Under the pieces are notes generated by a model, which had not been told where the DNA came from, ran no database searches, and saw nothing but the letters and a program-made list of their open reading frames with translations. The translations under genes and the position numbers were made by a program. From NCBI GenBank assembly GCA_949284685.1, contig CASDWE010000001.1:17216-81215 (forward strand): DNA of 64,000 nt. The letters are read 5' to 3'. Origin of the DNA: an uncultured bacterium (GTDB lineage: Bacteria > Bacillota_I > Bacilli_A > RFN20 > CAG-826). Below are positions 16,532-63,603 of this stretch, piece after piece. Each line of letters opens with the position of its first letter. The first letter of the stretch is position 1.

Positions 16532-16654
16532 ACAACTCCTTTCCTAAAAATTATTAAGTACATTAGGATTTATACTATTTATTATTTAACCATTAACAAT
16601 ATTTTATTTCAAACATTTTTTACATTGTGATGATAAATGGTATAATATGTAGAG

Positions 16655-17626
16655 ATGAAAAAAAGTAAAAAAAGTTTAATTTATAAAATTCCATTAATAA
16701 TCATTGCTAGCATACTTGGTCTAGTGAGTGTGGTTTCTGGTGGTCTTAATATTTTAAAATATGGCATTTATTCAGAATTTTATGCGGTTAAGGAAGATAT
16801 TGCAACACTCCCGGGATTAAATGACAATTTTGTTCCACAAGGAATATGTGTAAATGAAGAAAAAGGCATATATATGATATCTGGTTATATGTCGGATCAC
16901 ACAAATAGTAGAATTTATATCACAAACAAGGAAAACGAATCACGCTATGTTTCTCTTATTAAAAATGGTGAAGATTTTTTAGGACACGTTGGTGGAATAG
17001 CTACAACTGGAAATGATGTATTTATTGCAAACAATGAAAGAATTTATATAGTACAATTAAAAGATTTATTAAACGCTGATACTACGATAGATATTGGAGA
17101 TGGCATTGAAGTAAACAATGCTGCAAGTTTTGTCTTTACCAACGATGATTATTTATATGTTGGAGAATTTCATGATGGCGGAGCTTATGTAATTGAAAAT
17201 CACGAATTTGAAACAGGCGATGGAACATATTATGCGATTTGTTCAAAATATAATATTAGCGATTTTACCACGTCTACTTCATCTACTCCAAAGCCAGAAA
17301 TAATATACTCTATAAGAAACAAAGTACAAGGGTTTGCTGTTAAAAATAATGGTGATATCATTCTTTCAACTTCTTATGGCTTAACTGATTCCATTTTTTA
17401 TTATTACAATAGTAATCATATAGAACAATCAGATGAAACATATGATGGTGTGCCTGTATATTTTCTTGATGAATATGATAAGACTTTAAAAGGTTCTGCT
17501 ATGAGTGAAGACTTGGATTATGATGAAATAAATAATCAAATAATTACATTGACAGAAAGTGCATGCAATAAATATGTATTTGGCAAATTCTTTTTTGCAA
17601 CAACATTTTTTGCACTCAATTGGTAA
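16655..17626 (+). CDS. Hypothetical N-terminally anchored protein, possibly beta-propeller-like
   Basis: 323 aa with a single N-terminal TM/signal anchor followed by a repetitive beta-rich sequence. An extended -10 TGGTATAAT sits at 16634-16642, only ~12 nt before the ATG, giving a very short leader. Confidence 0.4.
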   Translation: MKKSKKSLIYKIPLIIIASILGLVSVVSGGLNILKYGIYSEFYAVKEDIATLPGLNDNFVPQGICVNEEKGIYMISGYMSDHTNSRIYITNKENESRYVSLIKNGEDFLGHVGGIATTGNDVFIANNERIYIVQLKDLLNADTTIDIGDGIEVNNAASFVFTNDDYLYVGEFHDGGAYVIENHEFETGDGTYYAICSKYNISDFTTSTSSTPKPEIIYSIRNKVQGFAVKNNGDIILSTSYGLTDSIFYYYNSNHIEQSDETYDGVPVYFLDEYDKTLKGSAMSEDLDYDEINNQIITLTESACNKYVFGKFFFATTFFALNW

Positions 17627-42985: not shown

Positions 42986-45016
42986 TTAATGATGATTTAA
43001 TTTTCTTCTTTTCACTATGATGATAACAAATGTAATAGTAAGCGCTAATGCAAATAAACTTATAGATAAAATAATTATAAAATGATTATCGTTAATCAAA
43101 ATTAAATTTGGCGTTGAATCAATTATAGAGCGATTCATAAAATTATTTAAATTGTATTTATCGACAATATAATCATATTTTTCAATTGCAGTTAAAATAT
43201 CATTATTATCACTGCCTTCTTTAAAATATTTTTGTGCTTCACTACTTAGATTTAAAAATTTTGTGCTTAAAGAATTCCAAGCATTTGTTAATTCATCTAA
43301 GTTAGTGTTTCCATCATAATCACAAATATTAGAAATTTGATTATTAAAATCTTTAGCAAAACTAATCGCCATATCTAGATCCGAATTTTGTTTAACTAAA
43401 CGATATAAAGCGATCGGTTCTTGGTTTGTATAACTTCCTGACTTGTAATATCTAAAACGCATTTGACCGCTGTCACCATTAAATCTTAAGTGGGTTTGGC
43501 TTGCTTTTGATATTATTTCAACATTTCCATTAACATATTCAATCATGTTAGTAACACTACTTGAAAGTGTTGAAGAAGTTAATAATCCGTTGCTATTGCT
43601 ACTTTGATAAATATACTGACCTAAACTTGAACAAATCGAATAACCATCATTATAAGAAGTAATAGTAAAAACTGAATTATCTAAGTTTGAATTATATTCA
43701 ATCGTTTCATCATTAATATCGACATTAATATAATTATTGACAACATCTAGTTTAGATAAACCGCTGTTAAATGCATAAGATAAGCTTTCATTTACTATAA
43801 GATATGTGCCAGAATAATCATCTAAACTTGTCACTTTTTCAAATACCGATTTTGTAATAACTTTATCCACTACTTCTATGTTATATGAACAAGAAAAATC
43901 ATAACTTAGAGAATTGATAACTACTTCCTTAGTTCCTAAACTAGTCATATTAGGAGCAACCACATTATAATCATCGGTGGCTATTCTTTTCCCGTTTTCA
44001 TAAACATAATAAACTTTCAATCCATCATAATTAAAACTTGAATTTAAAGAAAATTCTAATTGGCAAGAATCAACATTTATTTCCATATCGACAGGATCTT
44101 CATCAATAATTTGACTATCGCCCCAAATATAATCGATATATTCTGGATGGTCAATAAACGGATTTCGATTTCCTTGATAAATAGCAACTTGCTCATTTCT
44201 TGTAGTTTCAATTGAATCAACAGGATCTAAACTATTCCATTCCACTAATAAATCAAAGGCCTCATCAGCGGTTGGTTCATCAATGATATTAGTAATGATA
44301 AGTGGCTTGCTAGCATTAGCGCCACTTTCGTTATAAGAAGCACTGCTACCACCTAAATATGAACGGGTGTTATAGTGCATATACATGTATAAAACAATTC
44401 TTGCTACATCACCTTTAACTTCATCATGAGGTTCAAAAGTATTTCCGCTTGAATAAGCAATCAAATCACCATCGATATAACCACCCCAAGTAGAACCACC
44501 ATTAACTTCACCATATAACTTATTGTTTCTAGAAGAATTTAAACCAGAAAGAACAGGTCTAATGTGGTGCATGTCAGCACCCCCATATGATTCACCATAT
44601 AAATTATCATCACCACTTGTCGTATAACCTGTTAAAGACTGTGCCCAAACATGTTCACGATTATATGTGGCTCCTTTATCCCAAGTTACATTAATTGCCC
44701 GATGAGTATAAAAATCGATAATATATCCGCTTTTATTTGGATATGGATCAGTATATCTTTGATATTCATTAACACCACTATCATCATAAGAAGTGTACGT
44801 TTTATGAGTTTCATACATTAAATCATGAAGACCTAATAACAAATCTTCACCTGTTAAATTTGAAACATCATGATAATACGTGTTAACATCTGTTTGATAG
44901 TTGCCAACTCTAGCTTCCACCTTATTTAAATTAATGTTTTGATTGGATAAAAAAGGCGTTGCAAAAATTAACCCAAAAGTAAGAATAGATAATATTATTT
45001 TATGATTATTTTTCAT
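42986..45016 (-). CDS. Secreted, C-terminally membrane-anchored endonuclease I-family nuclease with a large C-terminal extension
   Basis: Signal peptide, then an Endonuclease_1-like core (REHVWAQS, ADMHHIRP, GNRNPFIDHPEY), a ~330-aa extra domain and a terminal TM plus basic tail (IIILSISLFALALTITFVIIIVKRRK). Confidence 0.6.
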   Translation of the reverse strand: MKNNHKIILSILTFGLIFATPFLSNQNINLNKVEARVGNYQTDVNTYYHDVSNLTGEDLLLGLHDLMYETHKTYTSYDDSGVNEYQRYTDPYPNKSGYIIDFYTHRAINVTWDKGATYNREHVWAQSLTGYTTSGDDNLYGESYGGADMHHIRPVLSGLNSSRNNKLYGEVNGGSTWGGYIDGDLIAYSSGNTFEPHDEVKGDVARIVLYMYMHYNTRSYLGGSSASYNESGANASKPLIITNIIDEPTADEAFDLLVEWNSLDPVDSIETTRNEQVAIYQGNRNPFIDHPEYIDYIWGDSQIIDEDPVDMEINVDSCQLEFSLNSSFNYDGLKVYYVYENGKRIATDDYNVVAPNMTSLGTKEVVINSLSYDFSCSYNIEVVDKVITKSVFEKVTSLDDYSGTYLIVNESLSYAFNSGLSKLDVVNNYINVDINDETIEYNSNLDNSVFTITSYNDGYSICSSLGQYIYQSSNSNGLLTSSTLSSSVTNMIEYVNGNVEIISKASQTHLRFNGDSGQMRFRYYKSGSYTNQEPIALYRLVKQNSDLDMAISFAKDFNNQISNICDYDGNTNLDELTNAWNSLSTKFLNLSSEAQKYFKEGSDNNDILTAIEKYDYIVDKYNLNNFMNRSIIDSTPNLILINDNHFIIILSISLFALALTITFVIIIVKRRKLNHH

Positions 45017-46867: not shown

Positions 46868-47501
46868 GTATTAGTGCTGATAAGAATTACATTACTCTCA
46901 AACGATAGACATCCAATTCAGCAAGTAGCCTTTTCGTATTAGTGCTGATAAGAATTACATTACTCTCAAACTTGAAGAGGCTAAAGATTTTGTAGAAAAT
47001 AGTATTAGTGCTGATAAGAATTACATTACTCTCAAACAATAATCAAGTAGAACAAGGTGATATTATTGTATTAGTGCTGATAAGAATTACATTACTCTCA
47101 AACAAAAGTTCTGAAGAGGTATTAAAGTAAACAGTATTAGTGCTGATAAGAATTACATTACTCTCAAACATATAATCCATTAATATATCCGACTTGGATG
47201 TATTAGTGCTGATAAGAATTACATTACTCTCAAACACCTATCTTTATGCTGTCTTGAAATAAGGGGTATTAGTGCTGATAAGAATTACATTACTCTCAAA
47301 CTAGTTGGTGAATATGGTGGCACGACCTTTCGGTATTAGTGCTGATAAGAATTACATTACTCTCAAACAATTTAAGGAGTAAAAAAAATGGAATTAGTTG
47401 TATTAGTGCTGATAAGAATTACATTACTCTCAAACACCTATCTTTATGCTGTCTTGAAATAAGGGGTATTAGTGCTGATAAGAATTACATTACTCTCAAA
47501 C
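46868..47501 (-). CRISPR. CRISPR array of 10 identical 36-bp repeats and 9 spacers (30-32 bp), transcribed on the minus strand from the csn2-side leader
   Basis: Plus-strand repeat GTATTAGTGCTGATAAGAATTACATTACTCTCAAAC, with repeat starts at 46868, 46936, 47002, 47068, 47134, 47200, 47266, 47333, 47400 and 47466. The minus-strand reading GTTTGAGAGTAATGTAATTCTTATCAGCACTAATAC has the type II-A GTTT(T/G)AGAG 5' signature. Confidence 0.95.
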
Positions 47502-47638
47502 CTCAAAAAAAATCCATGTTTTTAGACTATTTTTTCAGTACGAAAGCCAGAAATTCTTATTTTTTAACACAAAAAAATGTTTGAAAGATTTACATTACAA
47601 AATTATTATAACAAAATTTAAACAAAATAAATAAATAT
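47502..47638 (-). promoter_or_regulatory. CRISPR leader. It is AT-rich and contains one or two degenerate repeat-like elements.
   Basis: 137 bp between the csn2 stop and the first full repeat. GAAAGATTTACATTAC at ~47578-47600 matches the repeat core GATAAGAATTACATTAC. Confidence 0.6.
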
Positions 47639-48292
47639 TTATGTCAATTGACATAAATCTTCGTCAATAATTATGTTTTTATCAATACTTTGTTTACTAT
47701 TTCCTAAATTTATAACGCTTAAATGTAAAAAACTTAATTCTGTTTTTAATTTTTCAATCTCTTGTTCGTTTAAATAATCAAACAAATTAAGTGTAAAAAT
47801 TAGATTTATTTTCCCAAATTCTTTAACTATCTTAATATATGTTAAGAAGTTTTCTAAAAAATTATCTTCGTTTTCGTAATATTCTAAGTCTATTGATGAA
47901 AATAACGTTTTAAAATCCAATAAACTTTCGTATTGCAATTTTATATTAGAATTAATTGATAAATCTAGCATTAATTGCCCCACTAATTCGTTAATTTCAG
48001 CTAACTTTTGTCTATATTCATCATTTATATTTTCTTTTTCAATTTGTGAATATAAATTGCTAATTTGTTTTTTATTATTAATTTGAAGATTAAGAACATT
48101 TTCAATAAAAACGATGTGTTTTGAAAAATCTAGTAAATTTTTTTCATATAAAAACATAAAGTCTTCGTCTAAATGTCTTAATGACAAAATAAATTTATAT
48201 AAATACGAAGGATTTAATATTTGAATATTATAAATCTCCCCGTTTCCAATTATAAATTCATAGTCAACATTTTTAATTTTTAAAGTCATCAT
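47639..48292 (-). CDS. csn2: Csn2 (short form), the type II-A signature adaptation protein
   Basis: 217 aa located directly downstream of cas2. N-terminal MTLKIKNVDYEFIIGNGEIYNIQILNPSY resembles short Csn2. Confidence 0.8.
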   Translation of the reverse strand: MMTLKIKNVDYEFIIGNGEIYNIQILNPSYLYKFILSLRHLDEDFMFLYEKNLLDFSKHIVFIENVLNLQINNKKQISNLYSQIEKENINDEYRQKLAEINELVGQLMLDLSINSNIKLQYESLLDFKTLFSSIDLEYYENEDNFLENFLTYIKIVKEFGKINLIFTLNLFDYLNEQEIEKLKTELSFLHLSVINLGNSKQSIDKNIIIDEDLCQLT

Positions 48293-48615
48293 AATTCAAT
48301 ATTTCTCTCGTCACTATTAATTACTTCTGTATTTATTTCTCCTAATATAATATTGATATCTCCAAATTGTTTTTCAGTAATGGTTAAAACCGCAACAGAT
48401 CCTTCTTTTGGAGAGATTTTTTTAACTTTTTCAATTGTGGAATTTGCAATTCTTTGATCTAAACATAATTTTAGATAAACAGATTTTTGAAACATATAAA
48501 ACCCAAGACTTTTTATATCTTTTACAAATTTAGAATAATTACGTCTTTGCACTTTTTTCTCAACTGGCAAATCAAAAAATAATAATAATCTCATATATCT
48601 ATAATTCATAATCAA
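48289..48615 (-). CDS. cas2: Cas2
   Basis: 108 aa (MRLLLFFDLPVEKKVQRRNYSKFVKDIKSLGFYMFQKSVY). It overlaps cas1 by 17 nt and csn2 by 4 nt. Confidence 0.85.
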   Translation of the reverse strand: MIMNYRYMRLLLFFDLPVEKKVQRRNYSKFVKDIKSLGFYMFQKSVYLKLCLDQRIANSTIEKVKKISPKEGSVAVLTITEKQFGDINIILGEINTEVINSDERNIEL

Positions 48616-49462
48616 TAAATTCTACATTATCAGTATTACTTCTCAGCTGAAGTAATAGATTTTTAACATAAGAATGAATAGCGTTTTCTAAATACATTTC
48701 ATTTCCTAAATAAGTAACTTTTCTATTTAACATATTAATAAATTCTTTTTTAAAATTATCGTTGTTAACTCGATTAGAAATAACATAACTATCCACTAAA
48801 GGACGCAATGGTTCAATAAAATCGCAAGAAAGATTAACCGGATTTGTTTCGCCTATATGATGAATACCAATTTCTAAAAGATATCCAAATGATTTAATTT
48901 CCCTACTAATAGCACTTAAAATAATAGAATAGCCATAATCCAAATATTTATTTATATCGTCTTCAAGATTTCTAGAAAATCTTGTTCCAAATAGTGAATT
49001 AAAATAAACTTTAGCCGCATGACCTTCCCTATTTGTGACATCATCATTTAAAACGTCATTTGAATAATCTAATAATTTAACATATGAATCTTCGTTAATA
49101 TTTTTAAGGTTTCTAGCTTGATTAGTAATTTTTTTGATAATAATTTTTCTCCAAATTTTACCTTTAATCTCGCTATTCCAATTGATTTGGATTTGAATTT
49201 TTTTATATGTATCACCGGTGCCATATATAGGCAACAATTGACTTTGTGGAGTATATTTGTGATCACAAAATATTACCATAATATTTTTGTTCATCAACGC
49301 AGACAATAAAGATGCAGTTAAAGCAATTTCTGTAGAAGCGATAATCAAAACAGATATTTCATCAAGCAATATTTTTGTCTCGTTTTCGCCTCTGCAAACT
49401 AAATAATTTAAAGAGTGTTCTAATTTACAACGAGATTTAATAGTTACAACTCTAAATCCCAC
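48599..49462 (-). CDS. cas1: Cas1 (type II)
   Basis: 287-aa Cas1 located 5 nt downstream of cas9. Confidence 0.85.
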   Translation of the reverse strand: MGFRVVTIKSRCKLEHSLNYLVCRGENETKILLDEISVLIIASTEIALTASLLSALMNKNIMVIFCDHKYTPQSQLLPIYGTGDTYKKIQIQINWNSEIKGKIWRKIIIKKITNQARNLKNINEDSYVKLLDYSNDVLNDDVTNREGHAAKVYFNSLFGTRFSRNLEDDINKYLDYGYSIILSAISREIKSFGYLLEIGIHHIGETNPVNLSCDFIEPLRPLVDSYVISNRVNNDNFKKEFINMLNRKVTYLGNEMYLENAIHSYVKNLLLQLRSNTDNVEFIDYEL

Positions 49463-49467
49463 TAAAA

Positions 49468-52400
49468 TTATTCACCTTTCCAAAGAACTTTCTTATAAAA
49501 ACCCGTGACAGATTCTGTGATTATTTGGCATTTGTTATCGGTTGGGTATGATGATGATATTGTTAATACACCAGATTTTTCTTTTCCGTTTATAAGTTTT
49601 AAGTTAGATGATAGTCTATCACATGTAAATAAATGATTTGCTTCATGATTTAGGCATATTAATTCTAAAACACTTAATTTATTTAAAATATTATTAATTT
49701 CTTCTGATTCCAAAAAAATTCTAATATTTTGTAAATTTGAAAAATCAAAATATATTTTTGATGAGATGGCTTTTTTATAAATATTAAACAATTGCATTTC
49801 TTTATTTTTATCTAAATTTTCTTCTTTGTTTTTGTCTCCTCTAGCTTTTGAAACAATATAATTATTTTCATATTTTTCGATATCTTCTGCTTTAAATTTA
49901 TAATCTTTAGTAATTATTTTTTTATCAATTAACTGGCTATATGCTTTTTCATTCAATTTAATTAATTTAAGTTCATCATACGAATAATTATGCTGCATTA
50001 AATTTTTAACTAAAAATTGTGAGTTAGTTACGCCAGTAATGCAGAATTTAGAATTGTTAATCGTGATAACTGTATTCACTTTTAAATTTTTGATAAGCAC
50101 ATTTATATCTAATAATTTTGAATTTTCAGATAAATATTTTTTATATTTTTCATCTGGTAATTGTCCATACATTGTTGGCATAGGAACAATCATGATTTTC
50201 TTATTACCTTTTTTATCTAAACCGGAAATCAAAGAATAAAAACCATATTGTAAACTAGAATATCCACCATATTTTTTGATGTCTAATCCTTTTTTCAATG
50301 GTAAGGCACCTTCTTTAATTTCTAATTTAGGAGTTATAGAATCTTTTGAAAATATTGTGTTATTGATATAGGTTCTAGTTGTCACCATAATATCAAATCG
50401 TGTATATAAATTCTTCTTTATTTGCTCAACTGTTTTGTTATATCCATAGATAAGCTTGCCATTTAGCGAATAAAATGGTTTTTTATTATTGTTTTCATCT
50501 TCAAAAATCTTTTCTGGATTTGTGGTTTTCTTTTGCTGTTTTAGTCTTTCAATCCATCCGATTATATGACCTTTGTTGAACCATTCATATATAGTTCTTC
50601 CGATAATAATATTAAGATACGCGTCGTGAGCGTGATGATAATCGTTTGCATCTCTACATTTAACCAAGTCAAATTTTTGGCGATAAGAAGATACATGATT
50701 AGCTTTTGAAAATACTATTGTTGGTTTTTCTTTAAATTCTTCTAATAAATCTTTTAGTGCTTTAGCACTTTGATTTGTTGACACTAATTGACGATTGACA
50801 AAATCTTGTAGTTCTTCATCGCTTAATTCTTCTTTTCGCGTTAATCGATTAAATTTTTTCTCACTAATAAGTTTGTTCTCTTTTAAAAATTTAAAATAGT
50901 CATGTGGATTATAGTCTTTTCTTCTATTTGGATAATTATATGGATAATTTTCGCCTTTATTTCTATTTTCGGTTGATAATACCAATACTCTATTGTCTAG
51001 AGAATCATCTTTTACTTTTGATTGAGGATATATGTGATCAATATCATACATTGTTCCATTTAAAACGCCTTCAAAGTCAAGTTGTTCACCGGTATATAAG
51101 CATCTTCCTAATTGAGTAAAATATAAATAAATTCTATCGCTTCTGAATGCAGATTTATCATTTTCATATTTATTTAATTTTTCCTCTAGTTTTTCAAAAT
51201 TGATATCTTTATCAAATTTGTTTTGTTTTTTTGCTTCTTCAATAAATTTTTTAGCAGCAGCGTATCTAGAATCATCAGTTTTCTTTTTGCCATCAACGTT
51301 TCCTCTAGCGCATTCAATAAAGAAATTGTTGATTGGTTGTTTGACTATTTTTTCTAATTCTAAAATAATCTTAAAACTTTGGATTAAAGATCTTTTCATC
51401 ATTGGTGACACATAGCTCTCGTCAATAGCCTTTTTAATTGATTCCATATTATATTCACGAACACCAATAACATTATTTCTGTATTCTCTTAAACGATCTT
51501 GGTAGTGATATTTTTCTAAAAACAAGATTTCTTGTAATATAAGATTCTCGTTTTCCATAATTTTTATAATAGAAGTATCAATCACTTCCCCGTTTTCATC
51601 ACAAGGTTTAAATTCTAAAAGAAATTTTTGAGAAAGCCTTCCCCAATTTTTATAAGTTAATTTGCATATTTTCTTAATTTTATCTTCGTCTATAATCTTG
51701 CTATACTTTTTCTCTAAACGTTTTTTTAAAATCGCCTTGTCTTCAAAAATTGTAATATCAAAAATTATATCTTCAATTGTATCAATATGTTTTTTAACAA
51801 AATCTTCACCAAAAATATTAATAAAATCGACCATTGAAGAAAATGATGCCACTAATTCAGCTTTTTCTTTATCATTTGACGTAGTTATTTCAACACAATT
51901 TTCACCATTTTTCTTTTTAAACCAGTCTTTTAAATCGTTTATCGTCACTTTTGAGTGATGGTAATAAACTTCTTCAATTAAAGATAATTTGTCTTCTTTT
52001 GAAATGTGATTTCCGTTAACATTTAATTTATTTAGTTCTGTTAAGACTTCATATCTGCTATATAAAATAGATTTCTTGGGCAAGCAATAACAATCTGGCA
52101 AATATGTGCACTTATTTTGCATTCTATTAATAAATATTTTTGCACTTTCATCTATGTCTACTACCTTATTAAAGTTCCATGGCGTAACTTTCTCGTTTGT
52201 TATTTTTTTAACCCAGGAAAATTTTTTCTTATTTTCATCACTGCCAGCATACAAAGGTCCGACATAATAAGGAACTCTAAACGTTAAAAGTGAAACTATT
52301 TTATCTAATACTGAGCCATCTTCATCCTTATCGTTTAAGAATGAATAATATTTCTTTTGGTTATTTAAAATTTTCTCTAACATTGCTTTATTTAACTGCA

Positions 52401-53718
52401 CGGGAAAATTATTTTCAGCAGAATTTTGACGTTCTAAATAACTTTTGTCTTCAATATTAGAAAAAATCTCTCTTAAAGTCTCGTCTTGAATATCTTCGGC
52501 TTTTTTAATATTTTTAAGTCCTAAAGTTTCTTTTAAAAATTTATAAAAATCATCCCTTGAACAATGACTTGTGGATATTTTTTTGCCATTGCATAGACAT
52601 GTTCCGATATATTTAGTGTAATTGTTGATATCAACTTTCTTTCCGCTATTATCTTTTGTATATGGCAAGCCAAATATTTTTTTCTTTAATTCAGGATGCA
52701 ATATACAATAATCTTTTAATTGACGTAATTGTTTTTTATGTTTTTCAAATTTTTCAATGTAAACCTCATATAGATATTGTTTTCCTTTTAAATTTTTATT
52801 TAAACGAATTAAGTCATATACCCCTTTTGCCAAAATTATTGCATTGAATATATCGATAAAATTTGGATATTCATTTTTTAATGATAATATGTCTTCATCA
52901 AAAGTTTGGCTTGTTATATCTAATTTAACTTTTTCTTCTGCTTTTATTTCTCCTTTAACAAGACTTTCTATTGATGAGCCTGACATTGTTTTAATTATTA
53001 TTTTAACTAACCCGGATGGTTTTTCATCGTCTAATAAAATTTGTATTAATTTCTCTTCGGTATCTTTTTTGCCTTTCACATCATTTAATTTTTCAAAAAA
53101 ATTGTCTAATACTCTAGATTCGTCATTTAATTTTTGAACATCATCTTTATCTTTGCTGTAATTGTCTAGAATATCATTAAGGCTATAAATTAAGTTTTTT
53201 AGATTTGAGCTATCAGATAATTCAAAATCTCCTTCGTATAAAAAGTGTCCGCGGTATTTAATCAAAAAAGAACAAGCTAAATATAATTTTCTTATGTCTG
53301 TTTTTTTATCTTCTTCAATTAATTCTTTGATTAAATGATATATGGTTTTATATTCATGAAAATAATCTTTGTCAGAATAATTAATATCATTAAAGAGAGT
53401 GTATGAATTTTTTAATTGTTTATCATCTATTGTCAATCTAGAATCATCAAGTCTTTGAAAGAAATTTTTATCAACCTTACATATTTCATTTGCAAACAAT
53501 TCTTGAAGTAAAGATAATCTAAATTTTCTTCTTTGTAATCTTCTTCTGTTCGTTCTATGAAGGCGCCTTTCCTCTGCGGTGCTTGCTTCTTCAAAAAGTC
53601 TAACACCCCACAAAGACTTGCCTTGTTTTTTTACAATATTATAATCTTCGTCAGTTAATGCCCAACCAACAGAATTTGTCCCAATATCTAAACCTAATAA
53701 ATAATTTTTCTTTTCCAT
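49468..53718 (-). CDS. cas9: Cas9 (type II-A), 1416 aa, catalytically intact
   Basis: RuvC-I LGLDIGTNSVGWAL, arginine-rich bridge helix RRLHRTNRRRLQRRKFR, HNH DIDHIYPQSKVKDDSLDNRVLV and RuvC-III HHAHDAYL. Confidence 0.95.
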   Translation of the reverse strand: MEKKNYLLGLDIGTNSVGWALTDEDYNIVKKQGKSLWGVRLFEEASTAEERRLHRTNRRRLQRRKFRLSLLQELFANEICKVDKNFFQRLDDSRLTIDDKQLKNSYTLFNDINYSDKDYFHEYKTIYHLIKELIEEDKKTDIRKLYLACSFLIKYRGHFLYEGDFELSDSSNLKNLIYSLNDILDNYSKDKDDVQKLNDESRVLDNFFEKLNDVKGKKDTEEKLIQILLDDEKPSGLVKIIIKTMSGSSIESLVKGEIKAEEKVKLDITSQTFDEDILSLKNEYPNFIDIFNAIILAKGVYDLIRLNKNLKGKQYLYEVYIEKFEKHKKQLRQLKDYCILHPELKKKIFGLPYTKDNSGKKVDINNYTKYIGTCLCNGKKISTSHCSRDDFYKFLKETLGLKNIKKAEDIQDETLREIFSNIEDKSYLERQNSAENNFPVQLNKAMLEKILNNQKKYYSFLNDKDEDGSVLDKIVSLLTFRVPYYVGPLYAGSDENKKKFSWVKKITNEKVTPWNFNKVVDIDESAKIFINRMQNKCTYLPDCYCLPKKSILYSRYEVLTELNKLNVNGNHISKEDKLSLIEEVYYHHSKVTINDLKDWFKKKNGENCVEITTSNDKEKAELVASFSSMVDFINIFGEDFVKKHIDTIEDIIFDITIFEDKAILKKRLEKKYSKIIDEDKIKKICKLTYKNWGRLSQKFLLEFKPCDENGEVIDTSIIKIMENENLILQEILFLEKYHYQDRLREYRNNVIGVREYNMESIKKAIDESYVSPMMKRSLIQSFKIILELEKIVKQPINNFFIECARGNVDGKKKTDDSRYAAAKKFIEEAKKQNKFDKDINFEKLEEKLNKYENDKSAFRSDRIYLYFTQLGRCLYTGEQLDFEGVLNGTMYDIDHIYPQSKVKDDSLDNRVLVLSTENRNKGENYPYNYPNRRKDYNPHDYFKFLKENKLISEKKFNRLTRKEELSDEELQDFVNRQLVSTNQSAKALKDLLEEFKEKPTIVFSKANHVSSYRQKFDLVKCRDANDYHHAHDAYLNIIIGRTIYEWFNKGHIIGWIERLKQQKKTTNPEKIFEDENNNKKPFYSLNGKLIYGYNKTVEQIKKNLYTRFDIMVTTRTYINNTIFSKDSITPKLEIKEGALPLKKGLDIKKYGGYSSLQYGFYSLISGLDKKGNKKIMIVPMPTMYGQLPDEKYKKYLSENSKLLDINVLIKNLKVNTVITINNSKFCITGVTNSQFLVKNLMQHNYSYDELKLIKLNEKAYSQLIDKKIITKDYKFKAEDIEKYENNYIVSKARGDKNKEENLDKNKEMQLFNIYKKAISSKIYFDFSNLQNIRIFLESEEINNILNKLSVLELICLNHEANHLFTCDRLSSNLKLINGKEKSGVLTISSSYPTDNKCQIITESVTGFYKKVLWKGE

Positions 53719-53738
53719 GTTGCATTTTTCTCCTAGAT

Positions 53739-53843
53739 GTATTAAATTAATTACATAAGAATTACATTACAAGTTCAAATAAAATTCATTCGAATCATAA
53801 ACTTGATTGCAAGTTAATTAACATCCGACGGGATGTTTTTTTT
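53739..53843 (+). ncRNA. tracrRNA. It is divergent from cas9, with an anti-repeat, two internal hairpins and an intrinsic terminator.
   Basis: 53755-53770 ATAAGAATTACATTAC equals repeat positions 13-28. CAAAT at 53776-53780 pairs with the crRNA 5' GUUUG (lower stem). GTATTA at 53739-53744 equals repeat positions 1-6. Hairpins are AACTTG-attg-CAAGTT and CATCC-gacg-GGATG, and the latter is followed by T8 at 53836-53843. Confidence 0.7.
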
Positions 53844-53938
53844 CTATAATTCTTATTATTTAAATTATACTATACAAAATACACTACAAAAATAACATTA
53901 TTATCGTTTTTCCTAATGTCCGTTTTTTAGTGCATCGT

Positions 53939-54633: not shown

Positions 54634-56856
54634 TTATATCATGACATATGTCAAATCATTATAATCAAACGTATATTTTCCATCATCGTTTAAAGTAAAT
54701 GTTATGTAATGAATAATCTTATCATAATCTGGTGTTTGTTCTAAATAATAAAAGCTATAAGTGTGACTTGTGTCGTCTAGTGAGTATGGGAACAAACGAT
54801 GATAAGTAATGCTTGATGCTGTTTCAGTTACTTTTTTATAAAATCCAATATAGCCATCAAGTCTAACATATGCTGGAAGATTATTTGAAGAAATATATTC
54901 ACCAACAAAATCAAATCCAGCAAAGAATCGATTATTTTCTTGATACATTTTTTCATCATAAATCATGTATGCACCATTGCATTTAATGTATTTAGTGCCA
55001 GCATTTTCAAATTGAACTTTGATGATGTAATAATTATTATCTATATCATAATCGACAAAACTAGCAAAACCAACATCGACACGTTCATAATTTAAATAAT
55101 GTTCTAAATAACGCGTTTCTTGATAATCAATCGTTGGTCGATCAGCTTCCCAACTACCAGTAAGATTTAAATAATCGTCGATAGTGCCAAAATTGCCATA
55201 TAGATCACTTAAATAGAAATGATAAATATTTGCCTTTATTGTCATATCGCTAACAACAGGTGATGTATTATCATAACCAATAAAATCAAATCTTAGCACT
55301 TCATTTCTTAAAATAAAGTATGGCTTTAATGTTTCTCCTTTATTAACAACATAATAAAAGCGTGAATTATCATCTTCGATTTTAATAAAAGCCTCTTTAT
55401 CATTCATTTTTTGATATTTAATTTCATATGGGACAGTTTCACCAAAACTAGAAACAACAACTAAAGCTTCTTCATCAATTAAATATTTATATTTTTCAAA
55501 GCTAGTTATGCCAATTAGATTGATGTTTCCATCATTATCATAATAAGCATCATATAAACTTCCACTTGTTAAAGTAGAAAGATATATTTTATTGTCAGAA
55601 ATTCTAACTTTTACTTCTTTATTTTCATCATAATATACACCATCAACAATATCAGATACATCGATTGGTGTTTTAATTCCAACATACAGTGTTGTATCTT
55701 TATTAAATTTCGTATCTTCAGTTAAAGGATACATCTTATTAATATCTAGATATACTTCAACATATAAAGCGTATAAATAATGATATGTATTTGAATTAAG
55801 ATAACCATCCACTGCGATATAAGTTTCATCATTTTTACCATTTATTGTGATGTAATAATCATTATTATCAATTAAATATAAATCAAAAGAAGGATCGCCT
55901 AATATCATTCCTTCGACATGGAATGATTTAAAAAACGGATCATAAATCATCTTTTGTGTGTGACGATTATCACTTATGACAATATCTCCATCAATAATGT
56001 TCGCACTTAATTGACCATTAAGCAATAATTCTGAATAAATGTTCGTAGCGATATTGTTTTCATCAACGCTGAAAGCGTAAGTGCGAGGAGGATATGTTTG
56101 GTTGGCAAAAATATTATCGACATAATATTCACCTTTTAAAGAAAGTTGTTCCAATTCCACTACTTCAACTTGAAAAGATAAATTAAAATCTAGATTAGAA
56201 TTTAATTCAACATAAACTGGATAAGTTCCAAGTTTAGATGTATCAACATTAGAATAATCTACTGAATATTCACAACTTTTAGCGGCCTTATTTTTACCAT
56301 CTGATAAAACTTTTTCTAAGATAATATCTTTATGATTTGTTAAATCTTCATCTAAATAATATGTTTTACGATAATTCACTAAAACTATGTCTTCAATTGT
56401 TAAATTAACAACATCCACAGTAAAACTAGTTCTGACATCGGGGTTATCTTTTAAATAAATATTTATTGGATATTGCCCTGGAATATTGTTATTAAAAGAT
56501 GATGAATCAATAACATATTCACTACTTTCCGCTTGAGTTTTTTCACCATTGGAAAGATTTTTTTCAATAATAATTCCATCGCTAATAAAAGTCGTATTTT
56601 TTTCATATTCAAGCAATAAGTCTTCTTTATTTGCAATATTAATAGAGACTACTTTGACTTGTGTTAGAAAATAAACACTGATTGGAACTATCACTGCTAT
56701 CATAGACACCGCTACTAGACTAGTAATAAATACATTTTTAAAAGAGAAAATTGATTTTTTTTCTTTTTTAAAATTTATTTTATTTTTAACATCATCAAAT
56801 GAAGATATATTTTCTTTTTGAAAATCTTTTAGAAATTCTTTTTCTATTTTTTTCAT
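54634..56856 (-). CDS. Putative anti-sigma factor / large single-pass membrane protein with an extracellular Ig-like repeat domain
   Basis: 740 aa with a short cytoplasmic N-terminus, one TM (ITSLVAVSMIAVIVPISVYFL) and tandem ~60-aa Ig-like repeats (…GQYPINIYLKDNPDVRTSFTVDVV / …GTYPVYVELNSNLDFNLSFQVEVV). It overlaps the sigma gene by 4 nt. Confidence 0.45.
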   Translation of the reverse strand: MKKIEKEFLKDFQKENISSFDDVKNKINFKKEKKSIFSFKNVFITSLVAVSMIAVIVPISVYFLTQVKVVSINIANKEDLLLEYEKNTTFISDGIIIEKNLSNGEKTQAESSEYVIDSSSFNNNIPGQYPINIYLKDNPDVRTSFTVDVVNLTIEDIVLVNYRKTYYLDEDLTNHKDIILEKVLSDGKNKAAKSCEYSVDYSNVDTSKLGTYPVYVELNSNLDFNLSFQVEVVELEQLSLKGEYYVDNIFANQTYPPRTYAFSVDENNIATNIYSELLLNGQLSANIIDGDIVISDNRHTQKMIYDPFFKSFHVEGMILGDPSFDLYLIDNNDYYITINGKNDETYIAVDGYLNSNTYHYLYALYVEVYLDINKMYPLTEDTKFNKDTTLYVGIKTPIDVSDIVDGVYYDENKEVKVRISDNKIYLSTLTSGSLYDAYYDNDGNINLIGITSFEKYKYLIDEEALVVVSSFGETVPYEIKYQKMNDKEAFIKIEDDNSRFYYVVNKGETLKPYFILRNEVLRFDFIGYDNTSPVVSDMTIKANIYHFYLSDLYGNFGTIDDYLNLTGSWEADRPTIDYQETRYLEHYLNYERVDVGFASFVDYDIDNNYYIIKVQFENAGTKYIKCNGAYMIYDEKMYQENNRFFAGFDFVGEYISSNNLPAYVRLDGYIGFYKKVTETASSITYHRLFPYSLDDTSHTYSFYYLEQTPDYDKIIHYITFTLNDDGKYTFDYNDLTYVMI

Positions 56857-57371
56857 TTTTTCATCTCCTTTTGATATTTTTTTAATGCTCGGTAATATTT
56901 AGTTTTAATAGTCTTAGAATTTGATTTAAATATTTCTGCAATCTTTTTAAAATCATAGCCATAAATCAAATACAATATGATAATTTTAGTATCATCTTCG
57001 CCTAAAATATTTTGCATAGACTTTAATAATTCTTGATAAGCAATACTACCTTTTATTTTGCTATCTTCATCTCCTAAATTGATGAGTTCATCATAATCAA
57101 TCATTTTGCTTTCTTTTTTTATAATGTTAAGAGCAATGTTTTTAACGGTTTTGCAAAGGTAAGATTTGATGTTATCAACGTTTGATAAATTATTAAAAAG
57201 ATTAATAAAAGTTTGTTGAATAACATCATTAATATCTTCTTTGTTAGTTAAATAACTAGACGCTATAAAATAGCAAAGAGGATTATATTGCTCATAGATA
57301 TATTTAAAGGCCTTTTCTTTATCTATGACCATCAATGATTTAAAAAGAAGCAAATCGAAGTCTTTTTTCAT
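56853..57371 (-). CDS. ECF-type sigma-70 factor
   Basis: Region 2 (DVIQQTFINLFNN) and region 4 HTH (GYDFKKIAEIFKSNSKTIKTKYYRALKK). The preferred start is ATG 57371 (MKKDFDLL) with AAAGAGG 8 nt upstream. The track start 57401 is a TTG. Confidence 0.7.
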   Translation of the reverse strand: MKKDFDLLLFKSLMVIDKEKAFKYIYEQYNPLCYFIASSYLTNKEDINDVIQQTFINLFNNLSNVDNIKSYLCKTVKNIALNIIKKESKMIDYDELINLGDEDSKIKGSIAYQELLKSMQNILGEDDTKIIILYLIYGYDFKKIAEIFKSNSKTIKTKYYRALKKYQKEMKK

Positions 57372-57590
57372 AGTTTTTGCCTCTTTCATTATATATGACA
57401 AATTAATATAAGAATTAGTTTCATTATTTTAAAAAAAATATCAATAAATGTATTTGATATAATTTATGATATATTTCAATATTTCTTTATTATCCAATTT
57501 TTATTTTATGTGTTAAGATTTGCTCATCAGCAAATGTCAACATCAATATTGGCAAAATATTAAATGCGTTTTATTATCATCAATAACCAT

Positions 57591-59695: not shown

Positions 59696-61507
59696 TTAAT
59701 ACAAATCAACAATAATTAAGACATCTTGATAATTATAATCGGAAATTCTAACCGTGCCAATTTCACGACCATTAATTAATTTTAATGAACTATATGAAGT
59801 TGGTGAAGCGGAAATATTATCAGAAACAAACGAATATAAAATGCCACTAGAATTAAGTGTATTAATTTCCACTCTATTGAATTCGTTATCAACCATGCAA
59901 GAAACGTACATGTTGCCACAAACTTTATAAACGTTTAATGTTTGATAAGGATTGTCGATAATGTTAACAATCCTATTTACATCATAGTCATAGATAACTG
60001 CGTCAATATCATTATAGTAACTGATTGTATATATATTAACTGAAGTGTCAGTTACTGAAATAAAGCTACCTTCAGTAACGGTGTTATATAATGTGCCTTC
60101 AACAGAAGGAACGATAATTTTGCCACTACTTGCAAGAATTGAAGAAACTCCTCTTCTTGTATCATTTAAAATAAAATAACCGGAGTTTTCATCTTCAACA
60201 TAACTACATTCTGTATGGCTAAAATCAGAAACTAAATTCAAATTTAAATCGTAAAGCAACTTTGTCTTTGTATTAAAATAATAACCGCATCTAACTTTAA
60301 TAAATGATAAGACTTCAAAACCTGTAACTTCATCAACAATATTTCCATCACCATCGATAATGATTTCTTTTGTTGAACTTAAAGTTTTGTTATCTAAAAT
60401 TTCACAAGCCGTAGTTAAGGCATAAGTTGGTTCATTATTTTTATCATTCATTGTTTTTGGTTCTGTATTAGTTAAAACATAATCCAAATCGATTGAAGAA
60501 GAAGTTCCTTCTAATAAATCATAACTATAAGTCAACAAATCATATTTAGAAGCACCATTTGAATAATCATAACTTGTGGCATCTTCTGGCAATAAAATTG
60601 ATGATTGAAGGATTATCTTACCATCTACAATTGCTAAACCCACGTTGCCACTATATATATTTGTTGGTGCTAAAAATGAAGAAATAATCGTATTATTTTC
60701 GTCAAAAACATAAATTGTTGAACCGCTTTGATTACCACCTAAATAATATCCATCTAAACCAAACGTGCTCAAATCAAGTGCTTCGTATAAAGGATATGTA
60801 TCAGTTGGTTGGTTGCTATCTTCTGCTTGCACAGCGGTATAATTATCATCGTAAACAAAAGTTGTTTCTAATGATGAACCATCAGCAAGATTTAAATCTA
60901 ATTCTAATGTTAAGACATCGTCTACATAACTATACGCATGAGAAGCAATTACAGAATTTCCACTTGAAACTACTTCTTCTTCTCTATTTCTTGTAAGTTC
61001 ATTTCCATAACTATCATATATAGTTACATAACCATTGCTTCTAACGGTTAAGAAAAAGCCCATATTGGTGTCAGTGGTTACTGTTATTTCATAACTATCG
61101 TTATAATATGATCTACCATCAAAAACCATTTTATGGCTAATCATGGAATAATATGTTGGACGATCGTATTGTGAACCGCTATTAGACTCATAAAAAATCA
61201 ATAAGCCGTAATTCATATAACTTCTATCCAAATAGCAGCCGGATGGCAAATCACTTCCATATGGTGCATCAAATACACTACTACTAGTTACTTCCGACAT
61301 TGAAGAACTAGAAAAATCACCTTCAAGAACAAAGTGTGGCATTTGACTAGAATAAATTTTGTTATCGTTATCTAACAAATTGTTGTCAAGCATTTCAGGA
61401 GTTAATGTTTTAAAATTACCTGAATTGCCTCCTTGATTGTTATCACATCCGCTTAGCCCTAATGCAGATATTAATAATCCAATCATTAATAAATTTTTAT
61501 ATTTCAT
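59696..61507 (-). CDS. Large lipoprotein of unknown function
   Basis: 603 aa with lipobox LSGC (MKYKNLLMIGLLISALGLSGC). Tyr/Ser/Asn-rich, beta-rich composition. Confidence 0.5.
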   Translation of the reverse strand: MKYKNLLMIGLLISALGLSGCDNNQGGNSGNFKTLTPEMLDNNLLDNDNKIYSSQMPHFVLEGDFSSSSMSEVTSSSVFDAPYGSDLPSGCYLDRSYMNYGLLIFYESNSGSQYDRPTYYSMISHKMVFDGRSYYNDSYEITVTTDTNMGFFLTVRSNGYVTIYDSYGNELTRNREEEVVSSGNSVIASHAYSYVDDVLTLELDLNLADGSSLETTFVYDDNYTAVQAEDSNQPTDTYPLYEALDLSTFGLDGYYLGGNQSGSTIYVFDENNTIISSFLAPTNIYSGNVGLAIVDGKIILQSSILLPEDATSYDYSNGASKYDLLTYSYDLLEGTSSSIDLDYVLTNTEPKTMNDKNNEPTYALTTACEILDNKTLSSTKEIIIDGDGNIVDEVTGFEVLSFIKVRCGYYFNTKTKLLYDLNLNLVSDFSHTECSYVEDENSGYFILNDTRRGVSSILASSGKIIVPSVEGTLYNTVTEGSFISVTDTSVNIYTISYYNDIDAVIYDYDVNRIVNIIDNPYQTLNVYKVCGNMYVSCMVDNEFNRVEINTLNSSGILYSFVSDNISASPTSYSSLKLINGREIGTVRISDYNYQDVLIIVDLY

Positions 61508-61548
61508 AAATTTTCCTCCTTTACTTTATTTTATCAAATATGAAATAT

Positions 61549-62448
61549 TTATGAATTAGTAACATTATTATTTGTATTTGATAGTTGTTCCTCCTTTCCG
61601 TTATTTGAAATAGTATTAGAATTATTTTCTTCCATCTTAGCAAAAACATAATCGACAGCTTTATTCATTTTATAACATGTAAAACCTTGCAAAACATCAG
61701 TGCCAATATAAGAAACAATAATTAAAATAATGAAAAATATATTAAGCCCATTTAATTCAATATTCGAAAAATCAAAGGGATTATATTCTCCTGGTATAAA
61801 ATGAGAAATAATTGCAAAATAAACAAACAAACCACCAATAATAAAAATTGGTAAAGTTAGCATAATAACAACAAAAGCCACATTTCTTTTTCTATATGCT
61901 CTTCTTTTTTCATTTATTTTTTGTACTATTTTAATGCAATATTTTTCTCTTGAACTCCTAATTAAAAAGCTAAACAATAGATAAAGGATATAAATAGATA
62001 TTACACCTATAATGATATAAACTATTATATCAATTACCATAAATAACATAGCAAAAATATTGTTACCAACAAACGAACCAATAAAAGAAAATAATAATTC
62101 GTAAAATGAATAATCACCAGCGATAGGTGCTACAAATATCAACATAGTAATTAATGAAAGAAAATTAATCAAAAACATAAACAAAAATATATGTTCAAAC
62201 ATCTTTTTGTTACTTTCATAAATATTTTTATATTTAGTTTGCATAACAAAAGCAGGATTAACAGGCTGTTGATTAATATTTGTAGCAGGAAGTGTGTTTT
62301 GCTGTTGATTAGTAACATTATTATTTGTTTCTTCTTTAACAGCACTACTCATATCCACTACTTCTTCTGGCCATTTGAATTTTACATTACAATGTGGACA
62401 TCTTTCTGGCCGACCTTCAAATACTTGCTGACACTTTGGACATTTCAC
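61549..62448 (-). CDS. Zinc-ribbon (CPxC...CPxC) membrane protein
   Basis: MKCPKCQQVFEGRPERCPHCNVKF at the N-terminus, followed by a Gln/Asn-rich linker and about 5 TM helices. Confidence 0.5.
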   Translation of the reverse strand: MKCPKCQQVFEGRPERCPHCNVKFKWPEEVVDMSSAVKEETNNNVTNQQQNTLPATNINQQPVNPAFVMQTKYKNIYESNKKMFEHIFLFMFLINFLSLITMLIFVAPIAGDYSFYELLFSFIGSFVGNNIFAMLFMVIDIIVYIIIGVISIYILYLLFSFLIRSSREKYCIKIVQKINEKRRAYRKRNVAFVVIMLTLPIFIIGGLFVYFAIISHFIPGEYNPFDFSNIELNGLNIFFIILIIVSYIGTDVLQGFTCYKMNKAVDYVFAKMEENNSNTISNNGKEEQLSNTNNNVTNS

Positions 62449-62837
62449 TATTTTCTATCTCCGCTAGTTGGCAATGTCGAAATTTCAACAACATTTGATT
62501 TAGGCGAACTAATAACATAGTCTTCTTTATATTCAGCATAAGCTTGAACATAAAATAAACCTCTTCCTCTAAAATTATTAAAACTATAGGTGTTAGTAAT
62601 TACTTTTGCGTATTTTTCATCGTTTGAAGCATTATAAATAATATAATAATCCGCTAATTTGACTTCCTCCCAAGAAATAGTCAAACTATTCGTTTCTGAT
62701 ATTTCTACATTAGGAGTAGATAAACTAAATCGCAAAACATCACTTACAGAACAAGAAGTCAAAAACATTAATATTGGTAAGGTCATTAAGATTTTTTTAA
62801 ATGTTTTCATTATTTTTTCCTCCTTATGCATACTCAA
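62448..62837 (-). CDS. Small lipoprotein, FN3/Ig-like
   Basis: Probable start MKTFKKILMTLPILMFLTSC (ATG ~62810) with lipobox LTSC, then a ~100-aa beta-sandwich-like domain. Confidence 0.45.
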   Translation of the reverse strand: MSMHKEEKIMKTFKKILMTLPILMFLTSCSVSDVLRFSLSTPNVEISETNSLTISWEEVKLADYYIIYNASNDEKYAKVITNTYSFNNFRGRGLFYVQAYAEYKEDYVISSPKSNVVEISTLPTSGDRK

Positions 62838-63603
62838 TTAAATCGTTAATAAAATAAAAGCCGAAAGCGCTAGCGATATAATAACCAATCATTCCACCAT
62901 AAATTAAAACCAAGATAAAAATGTTCCCGATGTCAACAATTCCATTAGATATGTCGATTACTTCCGCATTAACAAATCCGTTGTAAAATAAATTAATGCT
63001 CATGATAAATAAGAAAAATCCTATAATAGCGTTAAACAAATGAAAAATACTTATAAATTCGCGTTGATAAATAATCATCATTATAACAATATATATAACT
63101 GATAATCCTCCCGCGGTAATAACCATATATGAGGTTTCACTTGATAATCTTTCAAAATCACTAGCAAGCATTAAGCCTCTTTCAACAAACATTTCTAATT
63201 TAGATAAATTAAATATGAAAATGTCTTGATAAAAATACGCTAAAACAAAAAATCCTGCTGTTATTATAGGAAGTATAATTAAAGTTATTATGCTAAATTC
63301 TTTATCACGTATTTCATTGATTTTATTAAATACAATTGAAAATGCAACAAAAAATATTACCCCAGCCGCTAACAAAACTAAAAACGCTAGCCAATCAGAT
63401 AATAATAAAGTAAAAATAGAACCAGCCAGTAATAATATGAAAACTACAACGTAAATAAATTTAGCAACTGGAAATTTAATCACTTCACGATAGTTTTTTT
63501 TAAAATCCCGTTCAAAATCATTAGCACAAAGATATAATTTATTTGCTGATATATTAATATTGAGAAGATTATTAATTTCTTCAAAATCTTTAATTTTTCT
63601 CAT
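62824..63603 (-). CDS. Polytopic membrane protein of unknown function
   Basis: 259 aa with about 6 TM helices. It overlaps the downstream lipoprotein gene. Confidence 0.45.
   Translation of the reverse strand: MRKIKDFEEINNLLNINISANKLYLCANDFERDFKKNYREVIKFPVAKFIYVVVFILLLAGSIFTLLLSDWLAFLVLLAAGVIFFVAFSIVFNKINEIRDKEFSIITLIILPIITAGFFVLAYFYQDIFIFNLSKLEMFVERGLMLASDFERLSSETSYMVITAGGLSVIYIVIMMIIYQREFISIFHLFNAIIGFFLFIMSINLFYNGFVNAEVIDISNGIVDIGNIFILVLIYGGMIGYYIASAFGFYFINDLIEYA

Follow-up and report, generated by a model that had tools for sequence, protein, structure and literature searches.

On the minus strand of a 64,000-nucleotide contig segment from an uncultured bacterium (the window, by which we mean this whole stretch) lies a type II-A CRISPR-Cas locus in the order cas9, cas1, cas2, csn2, leader and repeat array, with a trans-activating CRISPR RNA (tracrRNA) gene encoded divergently on the plus strand upstream of cas9. 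The window has a G+C content of 28.8% and reads through in genetic code 11. The Cas proteins were assigned to families using NCBIfam with its curated cut-offs and, in addition, Pfam. All four pass the NCBIfam cut-offs with matches that run essentially end to end, and cas1, cas2 and csn2 are the only open reading frames (ORFs) between cas9 and the array. Because csn2 co-occurs with cas9, cas1 and cas2, all above curated cut-offs, the locus is assigned to type II-A; it has this signature gene and neither the II-B layout, with cas4, nor the bare cas9-cas1-cas2 layout of II-C. Every element that the original prediction had listed for a complete locus of this type was found where it had been placed. 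We are highly confident that this is a complete, chromosomal, intact and currently evolving type II-A adaptive immune system, a reading with direct support from the presence and intactness of the genes, the catalytic residues, the covarying RNA pairs, the terminator and the turnover of spacers from strain to strain.

The cas9 gene (49468..53718, minus strand) encodes a protein of 1416 aa that matches TIGR01865 at 760 bits (cut-off 100). The product comprises a bridge helix, a REC region, an HNH domain, a split RuvC domain and a divergent domain for interaction with the protospacer adjacent motif (PAM), the PI domain; the corresponding Pfam matches are Cas9-BH, Cas9_REC, HNH_4, Cas9_RuvC and Cas9_PI, the last at 8.5e-29. 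BLASTP aligns the protein with SpCas9 at 30% identity over 1257 aa, and places the RuvC residues D11, E802, H1029 and D1032 opposite SpCas9 D10, E762, H983 and D986, and the HNH residues D894, H895 and N918 opposite D839, H840 and N863. These catalytic columns are invariant in a MAFFT alignment of 82 sequences (the window protein, SpCas9 and 80 database homologues), and the earlier claim of intact RuvC and HNH motifs is thus borne out for all seven residues. The SpCas9 sequence used for comparison has the expected length of 1368 aa and an E-value consistent with the SpCas9 hits in the PDB. The best PDB match is 9JWK, the structure of FrCas9 (phmmer E = 1e-162, 547 bits, query residues 4-1242).

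A search of the PDB with the C-terminal PI fragment alone (aa 1100-1416, 317 residues) gave no match at E <= 0.01. The columns of the SpCas9 PAM arginine pair R1333/R1335 are occupied by S1382/V1384 in the 82-sequence alignment, in a low-confidence region that BLASTP leaves unaligned. Given S1382/V1384 at these columns, an NGG PAM of the SpCas9 kind is unlikely, with the weakness of the alignment in mind. Transfer of PAM contacts from solved structures was also rejected, as the PI fragment is without a PDB match. Judged from the protein sequence, PAM specificity is not inferable by homology.

The three adaptation genes follow cas9 on the same strand. The product of cas1 (48599..49462, minus; 287 aa) belongs to the type II subtype and matches TIGR03639 (cas1_NMENI) near full length, with E = 5.1e-81 and 272 bits (cut-off 120). 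The cas2 gene (48289..48615, minus) encodes 108 aa from a TTG start and matches TIGR01573 at 73 bits (cut-off 24.5) as well as PF09827. Its counterparts in relatives are called as 106 aa, with agreement between the gene calls in L002 and L012 (L numbers denote loci in other assemblies, described below). The csn2 gene (47639..48292, minus) is of the short form, with a product of 217 aa that matches TIGR01866 (E = 2.7e-31, 109 bits, cut-off 35) over protein residues 4-215 and positions 2-221 of the 222-position model; Pfam Cas_Csn2 matches too. At this length it fits the short Csn2 class of Van Orden et al., given as 218-230 aa (PMC5382924).

The array (46868..47501, minus) is made up of ten 36-nt repeats (GTTTGAGAGTAATGTAATTCTTATCAGCACTAATAC) and nine spacers that are 30-32 nt long. 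Both a search for repeats and TRF (Tandem Repeats Finder) returned ten copies with a period of 66-68 nt, and an exact-match script found all ten to be identical, including the terminal one. Spacer 1 (47465..47436, minus) has the same sequence as spacer 4 (47265..47236, minus), and so only eight of the nine spacers are distinct. Two small ORFs inside the array, 47043-47237 and 47339-47584, are spurious. A search for the repeat sequence in indexed papers gave no match, and sample and accession identifiers led to no relevant publication.

Between csn2 and the array lies an AT-rich leader of 137 nt (47502..47638, minus) with the 3' end TTTTGAG|GTTT. The terminal TTTTGAG is a 6/7 match to ATTTGAG, the motif that abuts the GTTT of the first repeat in Group 1 leaders; Wei et al. 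2015 showed that spacer integration at S. thermophilus CRISPR1 requires it, and Van Orden et al. 2017 surveyed it across II-A loci (PMC5382924). The exact ATTTGAG|GTTT leader end is found in L007, L009, L010 and L011. A candidate extended -10 box, TGTTATAAT, is located at 47613..47605 (minus); this putative leader promoter and its transcription start are placed by consensus and conservation only. Six nt downstream of the box, at the predicted start of the precursor CRISPR RNA (pre-crRNA), sits a repeat-like element, GTAATGTAAATCTT (47598..47585, minus), which equals repeat nt 9-22 at 13/14 identity (shuffle p ~ 4e-4). L007 and L010 carry the same element with the same spacing, and L009 a partial form of it. 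The L007 variant (GTAATATAA...) fits the complement of the L007 anti-repeat better than the L007 repeat itself does. In the window, a 13/14 pairing of the element with the tracrRNA anti-repeat is possible.

The tracrRNA gene spans approximately 53752..53843 on the plus strand (about 90 nt, with predicted ends and promoter). It contains an anti-repeat (ATAAGAATTACATTAC-AAG-TTCAAAT, 53755-53780, plus), a nexus-like hairpin (53784-53795), a 6-bp AACUUG/CAAGUU hairpin (53800-53815) and an intrinsic terminator, the last consisting of a GC-rich stem (53820-53837) and a U8 run to 53843 and also found independently by terminator prediction. Cofolding of repeat and tracrRNA (-37.1 kcal/mol) gives a 7-bp lower stem, an asymmetric bulge of 1 nt versus 3 nt, and a 16-bp upper stem. 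The repeat:anti-repeat duplex alone has a predicted energy of -23.3 kcal/mol, compared with -6.6 +/- 2.3 for shuffled anti-repeats. Folding z-scores are -2.95 for the 3' part of the tracrRNA and -8.1 for a fusion of repeat and tracrRNA that resembles a single-guide RNA (sgRNA).

We tested the conservation of this fold with RNAalifold on seven loci, using fusions of repeat nt 1-21, a GAAA linker and the tracrRNA; the sample is small and the crRNA-tracrRNA fusion artificial. Compensatory double changes were seen in 9 of the 33 predicted pairs: the second hairpin accounts for five of them, the terminator for two, and the lower stem of the repeat:anti-repeat duplex for the other two (G-C to A-U; A-U to G-C or U-A). 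The L001 and window tracrRNAs differ by two substitutions, both in hairpin loops. The covariation provides good comparative support for a real, conserved tracrRNA and, together with the fold of the fusion, upholds the divergent tracrRNA of the original prediction. A nexus hairpin proper was not accepted: the minimum free energy structure has a 4-bp AUUC/GAAU stem that is unsupported by covariation, hence our use of nexus-like only. The guide scaffold that follows from this fold, repeat nt 1-24 plus tracrRNA 53755-53843, is ready to test.

Only about 30-35 nt lie between the anti-repeat and the start codon of cas9. A putative promoter for the tracrRNA, TTGCAT (53720-53725)-N17-TAAATT (53743-53748), abuts that codon, and the same geometry is seen in L010 (TTGATT-N17-TAAAAT) and L011 (TTGACA-N17-TATTAT). 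On the opposite strand, a candidate -10 box for the cas operon, TATAAT (53864..53869, minus), can be read beyond the complement of the tracrRNA terminator. Cas9-sense -10 boxes occur at the equivalent place in L009, L010 and L011, where they are extended (TGnTATAAT-like), and in L007, where the box is TATAAA and not extended. If the candidate at 53864..53869 drives the operon, the tracrRNA gene would lie wholly antisense inside the probable cas9 5' untranslated region. Both the antisense layout and the leader repeat-like element recur at fixed positions in relatives with 50-55% Cas9 identity. Should the antisense layout hold, cas9 mRNA and tracrRNA would be complementary to each other and substrates for RNase III, which would allow the two transcripts to be coupled in a form of RNA-level autoregulation. 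Pairing of the leader element with the anti-repeat could sequester tracrRNA or set off leader processing. It is rather unlikely, in our estimate, that the locus offers a PI domain reading a PAM not represented among characterised Cas9s, and/or a regulatory layout of this antisense tracrRNA-cas9-leader kind.

Public assemblies from NCBI, ENA and Logan contain a Cas9 protein identical to that of the window (P0121), which falls into a cluster of 12 members at 90% identity, all unannotated. The public relatives comprise an uncultured Bacilli metagenome-assembled genome (CALVSI010000010.1, L001) and the ENA/Logan contigs P0001 and P0121-P0131. Relative to the window, Cas9 identity is 93-97% in L001 and L002, 55% in L007, approximately 50% in L009 and L010, and 43% in L011; the nearest Cas9 clusters outside the window's own species-level group are at most 55% identical. 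Gene order and the position and orientation of the tracrRNA are common to L001, L002, L007, L009, L010 and L011. The close relatives resemble the window in having a Cas9 that is identical or 93-97% identical, in synteny, in the tracrRNA and in a repeat that is identical or one base off (G27A), but they differ in spacer content, and entirely so between lineages. Arrays could be recovered from eight contigs of the 90% cluster and from L001, and these fall into five lineages (window/L012, L001/L014, L002, L015 and L017/L018). Together the five hold 114 unique spacers, with 7-30 per resolved array, and none is common between lineages, even at the trailer end. Such turnover among strains whose cas genes share at least 93% identity is a strong argument that adaptation is ongoing. 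The earlier claim of an active system, which had been made from identical repeats and intact cas genes, is strengthened by these entirely different spacer sets in five lineages of strains whose Cas9 proteins are at least 90% identical. Owing to the turnover, the array is also useful for telling strains of this uncultured organism apart and for tracing the phages that it has met.

Some spacers of different origin address the same site. Window spacer 6 (47133..47104, minus) and L002 spacer 9 (16781-16810) derive from the same target site with a 2-nt offset and share a 13-nt identical core, and L015 spacers S2 and S19 are two sequence variants of one protospacer. Shared-site spacers across lineages and a variant pair within L015 bear the mark of repeated contact with invaders that are related and diverging. 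We also considered overlapping spacer pairs as a PAM read-out, and set this aside: the one clear offset pair, window S6 and L002 S9, yields two bases, TT, which is too little. Separately, L002 spacers 2, 3 and 5 (16253-16578) are very GC-rich; CGGCGGCGCATGGGCTGACCCGGACTTCTA, for example, has 70% G+C. As the host has about 29%, acquisition from unrelated high-GC foreign DNA is likely. These GC-rich spacers had no database match.

The array of the window itself needs to be read with some care. The original prediction described ten repeats, and ten identical repeats are indeed present, but only eight of the spacers are distinct, and the leader-end order is not reproduced in an independent assembly of the same strain. 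This assembly is the ENA scaffold L012, with a cas9 gene that is 100% nucleotide-identical to that of the window. Its array (9218-9716) has eight repeats, carries S1 twice in tandem, one copy adjoining a repeat with a 1-nt deletion, and is without S2 and S3. It is a real possibility, though somewhat short of an even chance, that the window order (S1-S2-S3-S1-S5...S9) is the path of an assembler through co-existing variants and that the duplicated spacer is an artefact. Beyond the L012 array, this is favoured by the reduction of arrays to one repeat in the Logan assemblies L003 and L008, by a gap of 100 N at the array's leader end in the ENA scaffold L014, and by the length of the repeat-spacer-repeat unit, which at 102 identical nt exceeds most short-read k-mers. 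However, spacers are duplicated in other strains too (L015 S19 = S24; L017 S9 = S20), so that re-acquisition or local duplication is plausible biology, and both assemblies have S5-S9 in common and carry S1 at least twice. Either reading of the array order points to variation at the leader end, the site of spacer addition. Two observations concern arrays elsewhere. In the Logan contigs L003, L008 and L016 a single repeat is left between csn2 and degV, a collapse that is an artefact for estimates of array size. The unit structure is irregular in the arrays of L002 (17140-17215 and 17942-18032), L015 and L017: some 'spacers', 39, 41, 45 and 54 nt long, enclose partial repeats, and others measure only 11 and 16 nt. 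This points to local loss or duplication of sequence in long arrays, or to faulty assembly.

To obtain a PAM from protospacer flanks, as had been proposed alongside the original prediction, we compared spacers with phage, plasmid and metagenome collections. BLASTN (word size 11, E <= 1) was used to search 8 window, 23 L001, 29 L002 and 51 L015/L017 spacers against 50,697 GenBank phage records, and the PLSDB plasmids were searched with the window and L002 sets. Phage matches of 25-30 nt, to Staphylococcus and Campylobacter phages, were rejected as sub-significant. Exact-seed scans of IMG/VR returned a single match (L006, spacer 5 at 24/30, flank AGTTATTTTG), and a metagenome scan returned two, L004 (spacer 6, 26/30, flank CTCTCTCC) and L005. 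In AT-rich DNA, chance hits of 21-mers are to be expected in numbers that cannot be neglected. L004 and L006 were rejected as PAM evidence, as their 3' flanks disagree (CTCTCTC versus AGTTATT) and both are compatible with chance, at about 0.03-1 expected chance hits per scan. No spacer of any strain matches elsewhere within the window, and there is thus no self-targeting there. No PAM was obtained in this way. That the catalogued phages are unmatched by any window spacer suggests that the virome of the host is still unsampled.

Could the locus look intact and yet be functionally silent, whether repressed, lacking a working PI domain or tracrRNA expression, or a recently inactivated relic? Expression, RNase III processing, cleavage, a PAM and the promoters are predictions here, and several results weigh against a working system. 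Across phages, PLSDB, exact seeds in IMG/VR and one metagenome scan, about 110 spacers gave no convincing protospacer. No Rfam family, tracrRNA and CRISPR-DR families included, had a match at gathering score anywhere in the window; at E <= 10 the sole match on the tracrRNA region was an unrelated small RNA model (E = 3.5), and the array had none. A generic promoter scan found 59 sites where 62 were expected from shuffles, which is uninformative in AT-rich DNA. The leader-end spacer order differs between window and L012, as described above. Silence of the locus would also be consistent with the absence of a significant stand-alone match of PI residues 1100-1416 to solved Cas9s, and with the shortness of the window array, at 9 spacers versus 22-30 in sister strains. 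We read the Rfam silence on tracrRNA and repeat as divergence from the Rfam seeds, not as absence of the RNA. Against silence, all ORFs are full length, the catalytic residues are invariant, the Pfam Cas9_PI match stands at 8.5e-29, and the repeats are 100% identical, with the terminal copy no exception. Near-identical strains have wholly different spacers, and one strain is polymorphic at the leader end, a pattern that requires recent acquisition. A silent or recently inactivated locus is therefore very unlikely, and an intact, currently evolving system remains our reading.

If the system operates like the II-A systems of S. pyogenes and S. thermophilus, the leader promoter would transcribe the array into pre-crRNA, and the divergently encoded tracrRNA would pair with each repeat through the 7-bp lower stem, bulge and 16-bp upper stem. 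By the same analogy, the duplex would be processed by host RNase III with Cas9, and the resulting Cas9:crRNA:tracrRNA complex would cut invading DNA beside a 3' PAM via the HNH and RuvC sites. New 30-nt spacers would be inserted by Cas1, Cas2, Csn2 and Cas9 at the leader-repeat junction, TTTTGAG|GTTT.

A comparison with characterised systems places the locus as a textbook-architecture II-A locus with an uncharacterised Cas9 orthologue, whose sequence is already in public data. The SpCas9 system shares the operon order, the divergent tracrRNA, the 36-nt repeat, the 30-nt spacers and the short Csn2. The guide layout is shared as well, with lower stem, bulge, upper stem, nexus-like element, AACUUG-type hairpin and terminator hairpin. 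All catalytic residues of SpCas9 are conserved in the window Cas9, whereas the PI domain does not align. The two systems differ further in that only about 30 nt lie between anti-repeat and cas9 start codon in the window, and in that the S. pyogenes leader end is of the ACGAG type whereas the window leader is of the ATTTGAG type (PMC5382924). In the latter respect the window locus is closer to Group 1 II-A systems of the S. thermophilus CRISPR1 type (PMC5382924), with which it shares the GAG|GTTT junction, the T/ATTTGAG motif and a short Csn2 of about 220 aa; the window motif agrees at six of seven positions, whereas its relatives have the exact ATTTGAG. St1Cas9, however, is much smaller (1121 aa) and only distantly similar to the window Cas9 (E ~ 1e-22).

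FrCas9, the type II-A Cas9 of Faecalibaculum rodentium (9JWK/9JWN), has the PAM 5'-NRTA-3' (PMC12926199). It is the best relative with a solved structure and shares the large II-A architecture of bridge helix, REC, HNH and RuvC, as well as an origin in low-GC gut Bacillota. The identity is only moderate, however; the alignment ends at window residue 1242, and the window Cas9 is 44 aa longer. As the PI region is not significantly alignable to FrCas9, neither the NRTA PAM nor its contact residues are transferable. That this Cas9 departs from both SpCas9 and St1, as first noted from the sequence, therefore stands, with 30% identity to the former and FrCas9 as the best solved relative. The further suggestion of a new orthologue holds in part: the database records are unannotated and the protein uncharacterised, but public assemblies already contain an identical protein and some 11 near-identical ones. 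What emerges is chiefly a sound annotation, of a II-A system that is complete and evidently active, in an uncultured Bacilli lineage with 29% G+C. Its practical value is modest, as a Cas9 of 1416 aa is larger than SpCas9; the divergent PI domain could add PAM diversity.

The genes around the locus speak to its residence in the chromosome. On the array side are genes for DegV, a thioesterase, a FakA-like fragment, a 676-aa endonuclease I, a ZIP transporter, a MerR regulator, an iron-containing alcohol dehydrogenase and ATP-binding cassette (ABC) exporters. On the cas9 side are genes for an XRE-type helix-turn-helix (HTH) protein, a 740-aa Big_3 protein, an extracytoplasmic function (ECF)-like sigma factor and a PRiA4_ORF3-like protein, together with several family-less ORFs. 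The degV-side junction is common to the window, L001, L002 and L007; as it is kept down to 55% Cas9 identity (L007), the locus is a long-term chromosomal resident in the group. A prophage, plasmid or integrative and conjugative element as carrier is most improbable: the XRE-type HTH regulators, the pRiA4b ORF3-like gene and the family-less genes upstream, and a large serine recombinase beyond the array in the distant relative L011, would fit such an element, but the flanks are those of housekeeping genes, the degV junction is the same in L007, the neighbours have no PADLOC or phage-structural match beyond generic HTH, and no tRNA or integrase gene occurs at the locus borders (nor any tRNA gene in the window). 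The recombinase in L011 (GCA_964324155.1, 14129-15826) is a 565-aa protein with Resolvase and Recombinase domains, encoded just past the array, and the L011 locus may sit in a mobile context, unlike the chromosomal locus of the window.

Three further neighbours were noted. The ECF-like sigma-70 gene (182 aa) is translationally coupled to the gene for the 740-aa protein (54634-57401, minus), which has Big_3 (Ig-like) as its sole family match; the two may form a sigma/anti-sigma surface-signalling pair, and they are kept beside the CRISPR locus in close strains and not in distant relatives. Further upstream, at 59696-63603 (minus), ORFs of 603, 299, 129 and 259 aa have no significant Pfam or PADLOC family, the 299-aa ORF alone having a weak PHROG match, to a family of unknown function; the same block is present upstream in L002. 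The 676-aa endonuclease I-family protein (42986-45016, minus), about 2 kb from the array, is kept in sister strains; it shows no evident link to CRISPR and is probably a nuclease that is secreted or sits at the cell surface.

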